This document shows, piece after piece, positions 1 to 25,125 of a stretch of DNA of 31,495 bases (position 1 is the stretch's first letter; each line of letters starts with the position of its first letter). The stretch lies in the IMG/VR virus record IMGVR_UViG_2778261428_000002; one strand, written 5' to 3'. The position numbers and the translations under genes were made by a program. The notes beneath the pieces are model-generated. The model was not told the origin of the DNA, did not search any database, and worked only from the letters and a program-made list of their open reading frames with translations. Source of the stretch: a virus (Duplodnaviria > Heunggongvirae > Uroviricota > Caudoviricetes).

Positions 1-1200
1 ATGCTGACCGATACCAAGCTGAAAAACCTCAAAGCGCGGGAAAAACTTTATAAAGTTGCAGACCGTGATGGGCTGTATGTAACCGTATCTCCCAATGGAT
101 TGGTGACGTTTCGCTATGACTATCGAATCAATGGTCGTCGTGAAACGTTAACGATTGGTCGCTATGGTGACGGTATTTCTCTGGCGCAGGCGCGCGAAAA
201 ATTAGTGGAAGCTAAAAAACGCGTAAATGCAGGAATATCGCCCGCTGGAGAGAAGCGTGACGGTAAAACAAAGCGAAAAGAAGAAAAGACACTCCACGAT
301 TTTACCGTCAGCTACATGAAACACACCCGGCTGGCGGACAGCACAAGGGCGATGAAGCAAAGCATTATCGACAGAGACATCACCCCAGTATGGGGGCGCA
401 AGCTGCTGTCAGAGATAACCCCCTCTCTCCTACGTGAGTATTGCGACAAGATAAAAGCGCGTGGTGCGCCAGCGACGGCGATTCAGGTTCGCAATATCGT
501 TAGTGCGGTATTTAAGTTCGCCGCGCTTCACGGCGACTATTACCCCAATCCTGCCGAAGAGGTTTTACCGGCTTCAATTGCGACATTCGAAGCGCGCGAC
601 AGGGCGCTCAAGCCAGAGGAGATAGGCTGGTTTTTCAATCAGCTTGAACAAACGGGTACATTACCCACCATCAAGCTGGCCATTAAATTGGTTTTATTAA
701 CGATGGTGCGTAAAAGTGAACTGCTGAACGCGCCGTGGGGTGAGGTTAATTTTAATGCCTGCCTTTGGACGATTGACGCCAGCCGGATGAAGGGATCACG
801 GGATCATAATGTTTATCTGTCCCGGCAGGCACAGGACATTCTGATTGCCCTGAAAATGTGCGCAGGAAGCAGTGATTGGGTTTTGCCTTCATGCAATCAG
901 TCGTCGCATAAGACCATGTCGGCGGCGACCTTAAACCGGGTCATTAATCTTACGGTTAAGCAGGCGCAGGAACGGGGGATCAGGCTGGCGTCGTTTTCCG
1001 TTCACGATATGCGCCGAACGGCCTCGACGTTATTGCATGAGGCGGGGTTTAATTCCGACTGGATAGAAAAATGCCTCGCGCACGAGGAAAGAAGCGTCAG
1101 AGCCGTTTATAACAAAGCGGAATACGCAGAGCAGCGCCGTGATATGTTGCAGCAGTGGGCGGATATGGTTGATGGGTGGATCAAGCAATACCGCCCGTAA
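1..1200 (+). CDS. int: Tyrosine integrase, P4/CP4-57 family
   Basis: 399-aa ORF. N-terminal arm-binding region typical of P4-type integrases (LTDTKLKNLK...YKVADRDGLYVTVSPNG). C-terminal catalytic residues present: HDMRRT (HxxR), LAHEE, VYNKAEY (Tyr). Family assignment is from memory of the fold, not a search. Confidence 0.9.
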   Translation: MLTDTKLKNLKAREKLYKVADRDGLYVTVSPNGLVTFRYDYRINGRRETLTIGRYGDGISLAQAREKLVEAKKRVNAGISPAGEKRDGKTKRKEEKTLHDFTVSYMKHTRLADSTRAMKQSIIDRDITPVWGRKLLSEITPSLLREYCDKIKARGAPATAIQVRNIVSAVFKFAALHGDYYPNPAEEVLPASIATFEARDRALKPEEIGWFFNQLEQTGTLPTIKLAIKLVLLTMVRKSELLNAPWGEVNFNACLWTIDASRMKGSRDHNVYLSRQAQDILIALKMCAGSSDWVLPSCNQSSHKTMSAATLNRVINLTVKQAQERGIRLASFSVHDMRRTASTLLHEAGFNSDWIEKCLAHEERSVRAVYNKAEYAEQRRDMLQQWADMVDGWIKQYRP

Positions 1201-4837: not shown

Positions 4838-5044
4838 CTAACGCTTTTCGTTAACGGACTGACGAAATAGTGTGATGCCGTTCAAAAAAATGATTCTTGC
4901 CATGCTGGACATCGAACGGTTCTGATCCAGCGCTAATGCTTCCAGTTCCGCGATTTCAGCGGGGAGCAGGCGCATTGCCACCGGTTTGTTCGACATCACC
5001 CCGCGAGGCGCTCTTGAGCGTAAGACGTTCTCATTTGTTTTCAT
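4838..5044 (-). CDS. Small putative DNA-binding regulator, first gene of the early lytic operon (Cox/Apl-like position)
   Basis: 68-aa ORF divergent from the HTH repressor gene and immediately upstream of ogr-like and primase genes. Start uncertain (Met 1, 17 or 24). Confidence 0.45.
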   Translation of the reverse strand: MKTNENVLRSRAPRGVMSNKPVAMRLLPAEIAELEALALDQNRSMSSMARIIFLNGITLFRQSVNEKR

Positions 5045-5124
5045 GGTGGTATATTGTGGTTATTAACATTACACAATCTATAATTCCCTCAATTGAGTGA
5101 ATTGTCAATGGTAATTATATCCAA
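5045..5124. promoter_or_regulatory. Divergent switch region between early-operon regulator and HTH repressor gene
   Basis: 80-bp AT-rich gap between divergent starts. Contains TTGTG-N13-CACAA and repeated CAATTG/GAATTG motifs that could be operators. Promoter elements not resolved. Confidence 0.4.
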
Positions 5125-5460
5125 ATGAAAGAATTTGGCATCCGTTTGAAGGAAGAACGTATCCGACTTGGACTTGATCAAGACGGCTTTGGACAACTTG
5201 GGGGCGTGAAGAAAAACGCACAAAGCAACTATGAGAATGGGTTGCGCAAGCCGGACAGTGACTATCTTGCTGGCATAGCGGCAGCGGGAGTTGATGTTCT
5301 GTATGTTCTAACAGGCAACCGCACGCCTGTGGTTACGTTGTCCAATAAAGAGAGTGTGTTGGTGGAAAACTATCGTTCTGCTACGCCAGAACACCAGTCC
5401 ACCCTTGACACGGTTAGCGCTGCGCTTGCGCAACCGATGAATTGTCGAAAAGTACAATGA
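5125..5460 (+). CDS. XRE-family helix-turn-helix repressor (prophage C/CI-like, or cassette regulator)
   Basis: 111 aa. N-terminal HTH_XRE pattern (IRLKEERIRLGLDQDGFGQLGGVKKNAQSNYENGLRKPDSDYLAGIAAAGVDVLYVLTG). Divergent from the early operon. Confidence 0.75.
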   Translation: MKEFGIRLKEERIRLGLDQDGFGQLGGVKKNAQSNYENGLRKPDSDYLAGIAAAGVDVLYVLTGNRTPVVTLSNKESVLVENYRSATPEHQSTLDTVSAALAQPMNCRKVQ

Positions 5461-5491
5461 TTTATTAATTTCAGCTTATTAGGGAGTAATT

Positions 5492-6580
5492 ATGGCAAAT
5501 GTCGGCTTTTCTTTTGAGGGGGTGATGATTGAAAGAATTATTGCTCATCGAATCTTCCCAAGGTCTCCCGATAAGCAAATGGTTCCACCTAAGTTAAGTA
5601 ATCAGTTAATAACGTTAGAACAAGATGCTTTGGATGCACTACAGGTTCGTATAACAGAAGCCTTAGGTAATAAATCTCATGGCATTGAAATGTCTATCAC
5701 TGATACCGGTGATGATAGTTTTTTTGCACTGACAACGTCTGTACTACATGTTGAAGGCGAATCATTTATTAACGTATCTAAGCGATTGGCGCATAAGTTA
5801 ACAGAAGCTCAATATAGTGCGGGGAAGGTTTCCGGTGGTGTGTTAGTAATCATTACGGGAAAAATTGGTGAACAAGCCTGCCCATTCTTTGCTGTACTGC
5901 GTGCTGAAATGCAAAACGGATTTCGGACCAATGATACCCCAGAGAAAATAGCGATGGAGTATATTGCTGACTTATTACTTACACCAACTCAGCGGCTTTA
6001 TAAAATAGGAGTGTTGATTGAGTGTGAGTCAGGCCATGAATTGATTGATGGTCGTTGTGATACGCAATATTATCGTTCATTTTTATTTGATCACTTGATG
6101 ACATCGACGGAAACTAAAAATGCTGCGGGGTATTTTTACAGTGTTTTTCTTGGAATGGGGATCGAAAAATCCTCCAAGAAATTGACGCAGGATTTTTTTG
6201 AACATACTCGAAATTTCATTAATCAGGCTCCAGTTGATGAAGAAACTAAGTTTGATTTACACGAGTCATTACGTTCTGAACTGAGAAGTCAGAAAGCAAC
6301 TTTGAGTACCGCTTCGTTTGCTACGGAACATCTTCCTCAAGAATTACAGACGAGCTATCAGTCATTTATGGCTCAAAAAGGTTTTCCGCAGAATGCAGTG
6401 TCTAAAGATACTGATTATATTAAGAAAAAGCTTCGTCGTAGAAGTAAATTAGTGTTTACAAGCGATGTATGGATATCCATACCACCAGATCAAGTAAAAG
6501 AACTGGTACAGATTGAACAAACAGATGATGATGAGTCAACTACACTTAAAGTCAAAGGGCGGTTGAAAAGTCAAGAATGA
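5492..6580 (+). CDS. Hypothetical 362-aa protein, partner of the RSH-domain protein; function unknown
   Basis: AGGGAG RBS 8 nt upstream. AT-rich relative to the phage backbone. Stop overlaps the next start (ATGA). No catalytic motif recognised. A weak, memory-based resemblance to NA37/YejK nucleoid-associated proteins is unverified. Confidence 0.7.
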   Translation: MANVGFSFEGVMIERIIAHRIFPRSPDKQMVPPKLSNQLITLEQDALDALQVRITEALGNKSHGIEMSITDTGDDSFFALTTSVLHVEGESFINVSKRLAHKLTEAQYSAGKVSGGVLVIITGKIGEQACPFFAVLRAEMQNGFRTNDTPEKIAMEYIADLLLTPTQRLYKIGVLIECESGHELIDGRCDTQYYRSFLFDHLMTSTETKNAAGYFYSVFLGMGIEKSSKKLTQDFFEHTRNFINQAPVDEETKFDLHESLRSELRSQKATLSTASFATEHLPQELQTSYQSFMAQKGFPQNAVSKDTDYIKKKLRRRSKLVFTSDVWISIPPDQVKELVQIEQTDDDESTTLKVKGRLKSQE

Positions 6581-7578
6581 TGAGTATAGAGGATTTTAGA
6601 CGTTATCTGGTTGAAAACCATGCTGCTTATGAAGCATGGGGTAAACATATTGCGTCTGAAATCAATGCGGCTTTGATTGAACAACTTGGTGAAGGGGCCG
6701 CCCAGCTCTTCATCAAGGTACCACCCACTCCGAGAGTTAAAGGTATCGAGTCCGCATTAGGGAAGGTTGGTCGTAAAGGTTATAACAACCCTGTTCAGCA
6801 GATGACGGATCTCGTTGGCGTTCGTTTTGTCGTTTTACTTTCTGAAGATATTGAGACAATCTGTAAAATCATTCAGAATAATGAACAATGGATAGCTGTT
6901 GTTTCTAAAGATTATCAGGATGAAATAGAGGTAAACCCTAAACTATTTGATTATCAATCAAAGCATTTTGAAATAAGGCCAAAGATAAATAGCGTTATAT
7001 CGGGAGTTAATATTACAACTGATATGTGCTGTGAAGTACAAATTAGAACATTATTGCAGCATGCGTATGCAGAATTAGTTCATGATAGCGTTTATAAACC
7101 TGTTGGCCCAGTACCGAAAAAAGCGGAGCGCCAAATTGCGCGTAGTATGGCTTTGATGGAAACAACAGATGAATTATTTTGTAATACAATGCGGCTTTTA
7201 TGTGATACTAATAAACCAAGAAATGATTTTTTAAAGGAGTTAAAAGATTTTTATATAAATAAAATTGGGAGACAGTATTTAAATCAGGAAGATAAAATAA
7301 ATTATTGTTTTTTAGATGAGTATAGGTCGTTTATACAAGAAGATCTTTTGACTAATCTAATCGACCTTCTTGATAAGAAAAAATATATATCATATAAAAT
7401 CCAACAAAGGGCTACTGCCAATCTTTTTTTTGCGCAGCCAGTGGTCATTTTTACTTACTGGCTGGCAATAAATGAAGACAGTAATAAATTACAGCAAGAA
7501 TGGCCGTTACCTGGATATTTGAACGAATTGAGAATGATTTTAAGTGATGTTGGTGTAAGTAGCGGTATTGGATATTAA
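6577..7578 (+). CDS. RelA/SpoT-homologue (RSH) nucleotidyltransferase-domain protein, small alarmone synthetase / toxSAS-like
   Basis: 333 aa. Synthetase motifs in order: PRVKGIESALGKVGRKG, MTDLVGVRFVV (DxxGxR), DYQ...FDYQSKHFEI, CCEVQIRTLLQHAYAELVH (ExQxRT...H.aE). C-terminal ~140 aa is Lys-rich and very AT-rich. Stop converges on gene D with a 4-bp overlap. Confidence 0.75.
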   Translation: MMSIEDFRRYLVENHAAYEAWGKHIASEINAALIEQLGEGAAQLFIKVPPTPRVKGIESALGKVGRKGYNNPVQQMTDLVGVRFVVLLSEDIETICKIIQNNEQWIAVVSKDYQDEIEVNPKLFDYQSKHFEIRPKINSVISGVNITTDMCCEVQIRTLLQHAYAELVHDSVYKPVGPVPKKAERQIARSMALMETTDELFCNTMRLLCDTNKPRNDFLKELKDFYINKIGRQYLNQEDKINYCFLDEYRSFIQEDLLTNLIDLLDKKKYISYKIQQRATANLFFAQPVVIFTYWLAINEDSNKLQQEWPLPGYLNELRMILSDVGVSSGIGY

Positions 7579-8681
7579 TCTTCCAGCCCCAACTCACACT
7601 CCACCGCCGTCCCATACCCACTGCTGTTATCCAACGTATGCACGCACCGCGTAATCACCCACGCGGTGCCGTCAATCTCCGCCTTAAACCCCTTCACCTG
7701 CACCGACAGTTCCGGGAACAAATCGGGCCGTCCGCGCGCAAGATTCAGGCTGAACGTTGCCGCGCCTCGCTGTAATAGCTCCCACGCGCTTTTTGCCGCT
7801 CTGTAGGCGTTATTTTTGTTGGCATAGGTGTGGCGCAGCACCTTGATATTTCCCTCTTCGCCGACCATCACGTTATCGGCGTTGAATGAGGTGTCTGACG
7901 TCGGCGATTCTGTTGGTTGCGTTTGCGGAAGATTTTTCCGTGTCTTGCGCTTCACGTCAGTTGACTGCTTTTTAGCCTGCCGCGTATCCAGCCAGTAGGC
8001 CGTTACGCCGGTATAGGCTTCCCTGTCCGCGATGCTGAACCGGTGGCTGTCGCCGTCCTCGCGGTTAATGGTTGCGACCGGCAGCGGCTTGCCGCTGGCG
8101 CTTTTACCGGAACCTGTCGGCATCAGCAGCAGAGCATCATTTTTCACGCAGGCGATAGCGCCGTGCATTTGCGCCAGCCGGGTTAGGAAGGACGCATCAG
8201 ACTCGTTAGTCTGGTCAACGTGCTCAATGGCGATCCCAGCCAGCTCGCCGCTGACGGTTGATTCCAGCTTATGACGTGCCGCCACGGTTTGCACAATCGC
8301 GCCCAGCGTCACATCATGGTAGCTCTGTTCCCGTTTAACGTTCAGCGAATCGCGGAAATCGGCGCTGCGGGCGCGGAGACTGAGTACGTCCGGTGCGCCG
8401 CTGTGCTCCAGTTCGTCCACGGTGAAGACATTCTGGTGCATCACGCCGTCACCCTTCCAGCCCAGAGAAACCGTTATTTTTTCGCCCTTTGCCGGAAACG
8501 CCAGCAGGCCGTCGCTGTCGTCCAGTTCGAGCTGCAGTTCGTCGGCCTCAAAGCCCCGGTTGTCGGTGATACGCAGGCTGATTAAGCGGTTGTCCAGATT
8601 CCGCGTAATGTCCTTACCGTTCAGCACCACGCTGTACTCCGGCTGCGGCTGGGCGTTTAAGAGTGCGTTTAACATCGTCAT
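7575..8681 (-). CDS. D: Tail protein D (P2 gpD-like)
   Basis: 368 aa in the conserved position after U. Start overlaps the U stop (ATGA). Confidence 0.85.
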   Translation of the reverse strand: MTMLNALLNAQPQPEYSVVLNGKDITRNLDNRLISLRITDNRGFEADELQLELDDSDGLLAFPAKGEKITVSLGWKGDGVMHQNVFTVDELEHSGAPDVLSLRARSADFRDSLNVKREQSYHDVTLGAIVQTVAARHKLESTVSGELAGIAIEHVDQTNESDASFLTRLAQMHGAIACVKNDALLLMPTGSGKSASGKPLPVATINREDGDSHRFSIADREAYTGVTAYWLDTRQAKKQSTDVKRKTRKNLPQTQPTESPTSDTSFNADNVMVGEEGNIKVLRHTYANKNNAYRAAKSAWELLQRGAATFSLNLARGRPDLFPELSVQVKGFKAEIDGTAWVITRCVHTLDNSSGYGTAVECELGLED

Positions 8682-14208: not shown

Positions 14209-14967
14209 TTAATTCAGGATAATCAGTTCTGATGTAGCGCTGGCTGGCTTTCCGCCTACGGTATAGCGAATCCCTACCGTTGAGAATGTCAGGCCGTGGA
14301 AGATATCGCGCATTTCCGGGATGTCGTTAACCGAGATAATCATCCGGCCCTGCATGGTGCGCGCCAGCTCTGCCATACGCTGGTACTGCTCAAGGCCAAA
14401 CGGTACGCCGTAGCCTTCGGTTTTCCAGTATGGCGGGTCGCAGTAGAACAGGGTATGCGGGCGGTCATAGCGGCGAATACAGTCGGCCCAGTCCAGATTT
14501 TCAATACAGACGCGCGCCAGCCGCAGATGGGCGGCGGATAAATCTTCCTCCATACGCAGCAGGTTCAGGCGTGGCGGTGAGGTGGTGGCGGTACCGAACG
14601 TGCGGCTTTCCACCTTGCCGCCGAACGCCAGCTTTTGCAGATAGTAGAAGCGCGCCGCGCGCTGGATGTCGGTCAGCGTTTCTTCCGGGGTGATCTGGAG
14701 CCAGCGGTACATTTCGCGGCTGACCAGCGACCATTTAAACTGGCGGACAAACTCTTCTAAATGGTGCTGGAGTACCCGGTAGAGGTTGGTAACGTCACCG
14801 TTGATATCATTCAGCACCTCGGCCTGAGCGGGGCGTTTCATAAAGAACAGCGCCGCCGCTCCGCAAAATGGCTCGACGTAACAGCGGTGTTCAGGAAACA
14901 GCGGCAGGATGTGTTTCGCCAGTCGGCGTTTGCCGCCGATCCACGGAATAACGGGTAACGTATTCAT
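14209..14967 (-). CDS. dam: DNA adenine methyltransferase (Dam-like, N6-adenine)
   Basis: 252 aa. SAM-binding FCGAAALFF and catalytic DPPY (YCDPPYWKTEGY). Sits between tail-fibre genes and FI. Confidence 0.85.
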   Translation of the reverse strand: MNTLPVIPWIGGKRRLAKHILPLFPEHRCYVEPFCGAAALFFMKRPAQAEVLNDINGDVTNLYRVLQHHLEEFVRQFKWSLVSREMYRWLQITPEETLTDIQRAARFYYLQKLAFGGKVESRTFGTATTSPPRLNLLRMEEDLSAAHLRLARVCIENLDWADCIRRYDRPHTLFYCDPPYWKTEGYGVPFGLEQYQRMAELARTMQGRMIISVNDIPEMRDIFHGLTFSTVGIRYTVGGKPASATSELIILN

Positions 14968-24336: not shown

Positions 24337-24516
24337 GTGTCAACCATTTCTATTCAAGGCAAAGGCAGTAAGCAAATCGCGTTACGAGTAGATCCTGCTC
24401 TTGAGGCCGGAATTCAGCAGGCACTTAAAGCTGATGGTGATGCCTCTGTTTCCGCGTGGATTAAGCGAATTATCAGGAAAGAGCTTCAGTCACGAGGCAT
24501 TGAAACAAAAGATTAG
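24337..24516 (+). CDS. Ribbon-helix-helix (Arc/CopG-like) DNA-binding protein, GTG start
   Basis: 59 aa, not in the ORF track because it starts with GTG. AGGAG RBS 7 nt upstream. KQIALRVDPALEAGIQQALKADG...WIKRIIRKEL fits a strand-helix-helix pattern. Confidence 0.6.
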   Translation: MSTISIQGKGSKQIALRVDPALEAGIQQALKADGDASVSAWIKRIIRKELQSRGIETKD

Positions 24517-24562
24517 CAGATAGGTATATACTTTTAATAAAGAGTATTAGAGGTAAAAAATA

Positions 24563-24751
24563 ATGGCGAAGAATAGCAGTCCTGCCAGCCGATACGGTAT
24601 CAAGGTCGTAAAAAGAGACAGTATGAGTGGGCAGTTCGTACCCGTCGAAATGAAACTGGACGGCCCGGAAGGTGAGCGTGTGATTAAAAAGTCGGCAGAA
24701 CGTATTTATGCCAGACACAACAAAGTCATTAAGGCGCTGGCTAACCGATGA
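24563..24751 (+). CDS. Putative antitoxin partner of Doc (family not recognised)
   Basis: 62 aa with GAGGT RBS. Stop overlaps the doc start (ATGA). Confidence 0.55.
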   Translation: MAKNSSPASRYGIKVVKRDSMSGQFVPVEMKLDGPEGERVIKKSAERIYARHNKVIKALANR

Positions 24752-25125
24752 TTGATGCACATTTGGTGATTGGAATTCACGATTTTATTCTTGCTCATGA
24801 GCCGGGATTGGTTGGTTATCAGGATGCTGGCCGGGTCGAGGCAACACTGGCGCGGGTGGATAACCGTATTCTGTATGAGCAGATGAATGATATTTTCCAG
24901 ATCGCCGCATCTTATGCGGTTGCCATCGCCAGAGGGCACGTTTTTGCTGATGCCAACAAGCGAACGGCACTGGTGACGGCGTTGACATACCTTGATATGC
25001 AGGGTGTGAACCTCAAGCGAACACAAAAGCTGGAAGATATTATGGTGGATGTGGCTGAGGGAACGCTGAATCTGGATGATTTAGCCGATATTTTCTATAC
25101 CCTTAGTGATGTAAATGCTTCCTGA
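24748..25125 (+). CDS. doc: Doc (death-on-curing) / Fic-family toxin
   Basis: 125 aa. Fic/Doc active-site motif HVFADANKRT (HxFx(D/N)(A/G)NKR). Confidence 0.85.
   Translation: MIDAHLVIGIHDFILAHEPGLVGYQDAGRVEATLARVDNRILYEQMNDIFQIAASYAVAIARGHVFADANKRTALVTALTYLDMQGVNLKRTQKLEDIMVDVAEGTLNLDDLADIFYTLSDVNAS

Follow-up and report, generated by a model that had tools for sequence, protein, structure and literature searches.

Organization of the cassette and its two products

The 31,495-nt Caudoviricetes stretch analysed here (the window) carries at positions 5492-7578 an AT-rich cassette of two genes, which probably constitutes an anti-phage defence system of the recently described type I PANGU family. 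The first gene (pag1A-like, 5492..6580, plus strand, ATG start) encodes a protein of 362 aa and 40.8 kDa, a YejK/NA37-type nucleoid-associated protein (NAP) that is predicted to act as a DNA-bound sensor and activator. The second gene (pag1B-like, 6577..7578, plus strand, ATG start) encodes a protein of 333 aa and 38.4 kDa, the predicted effector, which is a RelA/SpoT small alarmone synthetase of the GRel type, a subfamily assigned to it by homology to Pag1B-Ff, the synthetase of the Ferrimonas futtsuensis PANGU system. The two open reading frames (ORFs) overlap by 4 bp at 6577-6580, and the overlap reads ATGA, because the ATG of the second gene begins at 6577 and the stop codon of the first finishes at 6580. 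The guanine-plus-cytosine (GC) content is 0.32-0.41 across 5501-7500, against approximately 0.53-0.63 (about 0.57) in the flanks. A first-pass annotation of the window had placed two such ORFs, with a 4-bp overlap and an AT-rich composition, on the same strand after an XRE-type gene, and its coordinates and composition proved to be exact.

The 362-aa protein is matched over its entire length by the Pfam family NA37 (E = 9.5e-15, profile positions 1-319 of 325). NA37 is the YejK/NdpA family of 37-kDa nucleoid-associated proteins. RefSeq likewise names the protein 'nucleoid-associated protein' (WP_074388881.1, at the same locus in E. coli L725). A search of PDB sequences with the protein gave no match; when its AlphaFold2 model (predicted local distance difference test, pLDDT, 79.8) was compared with PDB folds, the sole significant match was E. 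coli YejK (9be2; E = 1.5e-8, 353 aligned columns, 15% identity). A basic patch, KKKLRRRSK, lies at residues 311-319. The product of gene 1 is a YejK-fold nucleoid-associated protein.

The 333-aa protein matches Pfam RelA_SpoT (E = 1.7e-18) and carries the RelA/SpoT motifs that the first-pass annotation had listed, at R53-x-K55, D78-LV-G81-V-R83, E153-V-Q155-I-R157-T158 and H162-AYA-E166, whose residues are all invariant in 34 homologues except T158, which is kept in at least 90%. According to its AlphaFold2 model (pLDDT 88.2), the protein has the fold of a small alarmone synthetase of the RelA/SpoT homologue (RSH) superfamily and, C-terminal to it, a long helix as linker and a domain made up of helices. 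The synthetase (toxSYNTH) alpha/beta domain (6727..7095, plus strand, residues 51-173) holds R53/K55, D78/G81/R83, the G-loop Tyr126 and E153/Q155/R157. The helix assigned by DSSP on the model (7117..7263, plus strand, residues 181-229, 49 residues) fits the alpha-helical linker reported for Pag1B, and the all-helical domain (7291..7548, plus strand, residues 239-324), which aligns to the C-terminal domain of Pag1B-Ff, is the putative counterpart of the Pag1A-binding 'DMK' domain. Both of these parts are modelled with pLDDT mostly >90.

In the Foldseek comparison of this model, ranks 1-39 are all RelQ or RelP, the best being RelP 6fgk (template modelling (TM) score 0.84, E = 8e-9), and every PDB sequence match of the protein is also RelQ or RelP. 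RelQ and RelP are small alarmone synthetases that make (p)ppGpp. CapRel (7ztb) follows at rank 40 (E = 1.8e-5, TM 0.42-0.43, root-mean-square deviation 14 Å, 243 columns). The NCBIfam equivalog for YjbM, NF053588, reaches 48.9 bits and stays below its cut-off of 320, and the other NCBIfam matches of the cassette are far under cut-off. In PADLOC, the NAP has no match; the synthetase is partially matched by PDC-S33 (E = 1.1e-13), with residues 34-166 aligned to positions 52-176 of the 349-position profile. We rejected an identification as PDC-S33, since the match is not full-length and covers the shared RelA_SpoT core only. Two readings of the first-pass annotation, that the second gene encodes an RSH-type enzyme and that its partner is a large protein other than a hydrolase, agree with these results. 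Its description of the 362-aa protein as unknown gives way to the full-length NA37 match and the YejK fold.

Homology to the characterised PANGU proteins

The name PANGU was given to two-gene defence operons that have a YejK-like NAP at their core (Li et al., bioRxiv 10.64898/2026.04.06.716658, April 2026). In type I, the NAP, Pag1A, is paired with a GRel toxSAS protein, Pag1B, which consists of an N-terminal toxSYNTH domain, a helical linker and an acidic C-terminal 'DMK' domain with a DNA-mimicking surface; the P. aeruginosa proteins measure 40.6 kDa (Pag1A) and 37.5 kDa (Pag1B). According to the same preprint, the systems act by abortive infection and protect by 3-4 logs when cells are challenged with T4 or Bas34. 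Pag1B forms an inactive tetramer until a Pag1A dimer turns it into an active 2:1 heterotrimer (Pag1A2:Pag1B), and the active complex makes pppGpp, ppGpp or pGpp from ATP and GTP, GDP or GMP and depletes ATP and GTP. Pag1A, which binds to long DNA, comes off the nucleoid upon phage-induced degradation of the genome, T4 escape mutations fall in denA (EndoII), and DNA-binding-defective Pag1A makes the system auto-toxic; Pag1A is described as an activating sensor and not as an antitoxin. Pag1A-Pag1B pairs are also stated to co-evolve (bioRxiv 10.64898/2026.04.06.716658). Our sequence and fold searches of PDB returned no PANGU structure.

A genome scan turned up Ferrimonas futtsuensis DSM 18154 (locus L046), in which adjacent ORFs encode proteins of 355 aa (counted from an MSFEFK start) and 338 aa. 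All 15 published residues occur at their stated positions in these ORFs, namely K6, E47, K52, K200, R203, K204, E278 and D282 of Pag1A and Y129, R258, R306, H314, R279, E272 and E337 of Pag1B; therefore, the two ORFs were taken to be the characterised PANGU-Ff proteins. In BLASTP comparisons, the window NAP is 34% identical to Pag1A-Ff from end to end (E = 2e-71), and the window synthetase is 30% identical to Pag1B-Ff over residues 2-328, the C-terminal domain included (E = 1e-54). The catalytic G-loop tyrosine is kept as well, Y126 corresponding to Y129 of Pag1B-Ff, and this column is Y in 34/34 sequences. On this sequence evidence, the membership of the window pair in the type I PANGU family is well supported.

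The translationally coupled bicistronic layout with its 4-bp overlap would also suit a classical type II toxSAS toxin-antitoxin system, in which the synthetase is constitutively toxic, the 362-aa protein is an unusually large antitoxin and loss of the antitoxin triggers defence; moreover, several toxSAS subfamilies are toxin-antitoxin toxins with unrelated antitoxins. In classical toxSAS modules (FaRel, FaRel2, PhRel, PhRel2, CapRel), a cognate antitoxin, which is a small protein of its own or a domain fused to the toxin, neutralises the toxin. However, the window proteins are full-length homologues of the PANGU-Ff pair, and neither gene of PANGU-Ff or PANGU-Pa is toxic, singly or combined. 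In addition, the NAP is needed for enzyme activity in vitro, and its deletion in the homologues abolishes defence and unmasks no toxicity (bioRxiv 10.64898/2026.04.06.716658). We therefore hold a toxin-antitoxin nature of the pair to be highly improbable. The toxicity of the 333-aa protein and its rescue by the 362-aa protein, which were implied in the first-pass annotation, run counter to the behaviour of these homologues, in which the NAP activates the synthetase. Since the partner serves as an activating sensor, an experiment built on toxicity and rescue is unlikely to succeed.

A second alternative keeps the activation by the NAP and gives the effector the chemistry of CapRel, FaRel2 or PhRel2, that is, pyrophosphorylation of the tRNA 3' end or synthesis of (pp)pApp, with no (p)ppGpp made. 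Identity to Pag1B-Ff is just 30%, toxSAS chemistry differs among subfamilies, and the fold match to CapRel is significant (E = 1.8e-5). On the other side, the overall CapRel alignment is poor, and both the top 39 structural matches and all PDB sequence matches are (p)ppGpp-making enzymes. In the preprint, Pag1B-Ff labelled no tRNA and used only ATP plus GTP, GDP or GMP. A tRNA- or (pp)pApp-directed effector thus appears unlikely. A role in abortive-infection defence, which the first-pass annotation had suggested for the pair, is likely; the tRNA pyrophosphorylation that it had associated with this role is not favoured, since the product of the homologue is (p)ppGpp.

Distribution and linkage of the gene pair

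In a species scan with one genome per species, 49 loci encoding a relative of the synthetase were found. At 45 of these loci, the synthetase gene is directly preceded by an NA37 gene in the same orientation; the remaining four are truncated at contig ends or have disrupted genes. The hosts belong to Pseudomonadota (Gamma- and Betaproteobacteria), Verrucomicrobiota, Planctomycetota, Bacteroidota, Actinomycetota (Coriobacteriia) and Bacillota. The lists of homologues obtained for the NAP and for the synthetase correspond closely, with contigs in common and identity falling in parallel. Across phyla, the gene pair is essentially an obligate module. Its neighbours include DarTG in Pseudomonas lurida and two HicAB pairs in a member of the Gallionellaceae; in Dickeya oryzae it lies in an element resembling an integrative and conjugative element (ICE), and it is also found on plasmids of Clostridium, Klebsiella and Ochrobactrum. 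Neither the cassette nor a full-length homologue was found in 50,697 phage records by megablast and tblastn.

In Neisseria gonorrhoeae DSM 9188 (L043) and two matches from the plasmid collection (H18 and H19), the synthetase homologue is matched in two pieces or only from residue 125 on, and the upstream NA37 gene is intact. The N. gonorrhoeae Pag1B homologue is probably frameshifted or pseudogenised.

Among complete E. coli genomes, the cassette is present in 2 of 5,426 (L725 and CEC15, 100% identical) and was not found in the other 5,424, even at the 'distant' sensitivity of blastn. In Salmonella enterica, the same cassette occupies the same slot of a collinear prophage, and there the backbone and the cassette are both approximately 85.7% identical to the window.

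In Dickeya oryzae ZYY5 (L006, 6244-9025), a cassette 84% identical to that of the window lies among MobA, TraD, a shufflon, an integrase and Mrr. About 670 bp upstream of it are homologous to the region of the window's 68-aa gene and XRE gene, with no intact ORF left, which suggests that the Dickeya cassette was captured from a P2-like phage and that the immunity genes then decayed. The shared upstream stretch made the XRE gene a candidate member of the cassette; it was discarded, as this stretch has no intact ORF in Dickeya and as prophages closely related to that of the window combine the XRE gene with a different cassette.

Prophage setting and cassette exchange

The window is a P2-like prophage, with an integrase (1..1200), a Toprim primase-like gene, Ogr/Delta, gpD, tail genes and a portal gene, and relatives of it are integrated beside guaA in E. 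coli. The cassette follows an XRE/HTH_3 gene (5125..5460, plus strand, 111 aa; Pfam HTH_3, E = 2.9e-5, and HTH_31, E = 2.7e-5), the putative P2-type immunity repressor. The gap between them is 31 nt and contains a Shine-Dalgarno-like AGGGAG; a sequence scan of this gap found no terminator-like site. Upstream of the XRE gene, a divergent intergenic control region (5028..5124) separates it from a 68-aa gene (4838..5044, minus strand). A consensus scan found promoter-like hexamers on both strands of the region, in a number not above the shuffled expectation. It is the probable source of a lysogenic transcript that would read into the cassette.

Two sister prophages (L002 and L003) have the attachment site, repressor and tail genes in common with the window, and their backbones are 95-99.9% identical to it. 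By blastn, this identity ends at 5436, 24 nt before the repressor stop codon, and restarts at 7629, inside the 3' end of gpD. The slot corresponding to 5437-7628 (9405-12408 in L002 and 9405-12407 in L003) is filled there by genes for a DUF6037 protein of 190 aa, an NA37 protein of 382 aa and a 418-aa protein without a Pfam domain; the last is split into 209 + 193 aa in L003. The sister NA37 protein is 20% identical to the window NAP over 172 residues. A 382-aa E. coli NAP, WP_120130707.1, is among the predicted defence genes of the DefensePredictor study. Because the XRE gene is also present in the sister prophages, next to another cassette, the low-GC module 5437..7628 is exchangeable cargo and the XRE gene belongs to the backbone. 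The low GC content and the different cassette in the sister slot also bear out the first-pass view of the pair as cargo that was acquired horizontally and that follows closely on the prophage immunity gene.

We suggest tentatively, at rather less than even odds, that the slot between the repressor and gpD is a dedicated exchange site for NAP-sensor defence cassettes, that the sister cassette, with its three genes, might be a PANGU-like system that is as yet uncharacterised and has a new effector, and that the NAP-effector coupling could differ in the clade of the window.

That the pair directly follows the immunity repressor points to expression in the lysogen, and (p)ppGpp acts globally on host growth. 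The pair might accordingly be a module for lysogenic conversion or phage regulation with no part in defence, in which the NAP and the synthetase tune host physiology or the maintenance and induction of the prophage; foreign NAPs on mobile elements are known regulators. However, the pair is also found outside prophages, where it neighbours DarTG or HicAB or is carried by plasmids or ICE-like elements, and the homologues protect by 3-4 logs. Furthermore, sister prophages with the same backbone do without the pair, so it is dispensable for the phage life cycle. A purely regulatory module is thus very unlikely.

On the other side of the cassette, the P2 gpD-type tail/baseplate gene (7575..8681, minus strand; Pfam Phage_GPD, E = 1.7e-22) converges on the pag1B-like gene. 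The stop codons of the two convergent genes overlap by 4 bp, and L002 has a similar convergent overlap of 6 bp. The last ~18 codons of gpD (7575-7628 in the window) fall inside the swapped module, so each cassette supplies its own gpD C-terminus.

The window holds further accessory genes. A second low-GC island (24337-25125, plus strand), opposite in strand to the surrounding late genes, contains ORFs of 59 aa (ribbon-helix-helix-like), 62 aa and 125 aa. The 125-aa ORF matches Pfam Fic/DOC (E = 2.6e-10) and overlaps the 62-aa ORF by 4 bp, and the island is probably toxin-antitoxin cargo of the Phd/Doc type. A D12-class, Dam-like DNA adenine methyltransferase gene (14209-14967, minus strand) lies among the tail genes. 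In L003 (4311-5123) and the Salmonella relative, an extra methyltransferase near the primase gene marks a further variable position in this phage family. A tRNA scan of the window found none.

Proposed mechanism and its weighing

Taking the homology, the linkage and the setting together, we estimate at roughly 75% the probability that the two genes form an anti-phage system of PANGU type I, which a P2-like E. coli prophage carries among its accessory cargo. By analogy with the characterised system, the lysogen would make both proteins, probably from the repressor transcript. The NAP dimer would be held on chromosomal DNA, and the synthetase would stay in the cytoplasm as an inactive oligomer. 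When a superinfecting lytic phage degrades the host chromosome (for example T4, with EndoII and further nucleases), the NAP would be freed and would bind the C-terminal domain of the synthetase to form an active 2:1 complex. This complex would move pyrophosphate from ATP to GTP, GDP or GMP, so that (p)ppGpp accumulates and ATP and GTP are drained; transcription and translation would then shut down, and the infection would be aborted. The NAP would serve as sensor and activator, and not as an antitoxin.

Several observations weigh against this interpretation. The mechanism is taken by homology, at 30-34% identity, from one preprint, and we infer co-transcription of the cassette with the repressor from only two features, namely that the gap measures 31 nt and that no terminator is predicted in it. 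The C-terminal domain of the window synthetase is much less acidic than that of Pag1B-Ff, with a net charge of -1 (residues 206-333) or -3 (residues 230-333, isoelectric point 4.8) vs -10 or -7. Mutation of R258, R306 and H314 of Pag1B-Ff abolishes binding (bioRxiv 10.64898/2026.04.06.716658), and these residues are E255, N299 and E308 in the window synthetase. Among the basic DNA-contact residues of Pag1A-Ff, only R203 is kept, as K209 (a column with R or K in 32/37 sequences); K200 and K204 are replaced by T206 and N210. Finally, charge complementarity exceeds that of shuffled pairs at only 2/5 salt-bridge pairs, as calculated over 45 paired loci with statistics that ignore phylogeny. In the window pair, the published salt bridge K6-E272 is charge-swapped (E9-K269), E47-R279 has become Q51-K274, and the remaining pairs are not conserved. 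The mixed complementarity would fit the statement in the preprint that Pag1A and Pag1B co-evolve. The weakly acidic C-terminal domain and the non-conserved interface and DNA-contact residues could mean that the NAP and the effector of the window clade are coupled otherwise than in the DNA-mimic model.

If the cassette is expressed with the repressor, which is probable, the host would be shielded by its prophage from chromosome-degrading lytic phages. A system that senses genome integrity through a NAP and answers with an alarmone synthetase would thus be placed inside a temperate phage. As a natural E. coli member that is 30-34% identical to the characterised system, the cassette is also suited to tests of how general the PANGU mechanism is.

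Comparison with known systems

The first-pass annotation did not recognise the pairing as a described one. The combination of a NAP with a GRel toxSAS protein is that of type I PANGU, published in April 2026, and the supplementary table of the DefensePredictor study contains the protein cluster of WP_074388881.1, the window NAP, as a predicted defence gene. We therefore regard the window cassette as a new, divergent, prophage-borne member of the PANGU family and not as the first of a novel class; it may even be identical to PANGU-Ec, the E. coli operon of the preprint. The word 'prophage' does not occur in the portion of the preprint text available to us. What the window adds to the published account is the prophage context directly behind an immunity repressor and a single slot that alternates between two unrelated cassettes, both based on NA37 proteins.

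With E. coli YejK (NdpA), the window NAP has the NA37 Pfam family and the fold in common. However, identity in the structural alignment is approximately 15%, and the window protein is encoded by a prophage and coupled to an effector gene, and is not the chromosomal orthologue. RelQ (SAS1/YjbM) and RelP (SAS2/YwaC) are the best structural and sequence matches for residues ~51-200 of the synthetase, with the same catalytic motifs, and (p)ppGpp chemistry is expected. In contrast to them, the window protein has an additional linker helix and C-terminal domain of ~130 aa, has an obligate NAP partner and sits in mobile, AT-rich cargo.

Both CapRel SJ46, a fused toxSAS toxin-antitoxin of a Salmonella prophage, and the window synthetase are RSH-fold proteins encoded by prophages, with an additional regulatory domain at the C-terminus and a role, predicted for the window protein, as effectors of abortive infection. 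However, CapRel SJ46 consists of one polypeptide chain with auto-inhibition in cis, is triggered when phage capsid protein binds to it directly and pyrophosphorylates tRNA, whereas the window system has a separate NAP partner and its synthetase has its nearest folds in RelQ and RelP. The DefensePredictor system DS-1, which consists of a hypothetical protein and a YejK-domain protein and was validated in E. coli, is likewise a two-gene E. coli defence system with an NA37-domain protein. It differs in its NAP (WP_000355468.1, 391 aa), which has an N-terminal zinc-ribbon-like extension, and in its partner, a 404-aa hypothetical protein in place of an RSH enzyme.

The closest agreement is with type I PANGU. 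The order of NAP and synthetase and the tight coupling of the genes are the same, both window proteins are full-length homologues of the F. futtsuensis pair with the G-loop tyrosine conserved, the synthetase has the same three-part architecture, the monomers are of similar size, and the context is mobile or defence-related. Compared with type I PANGU as it has been described, the window cassette is set apart by its location in a P2-like prophage, where it immediately follows the immunity repressor.

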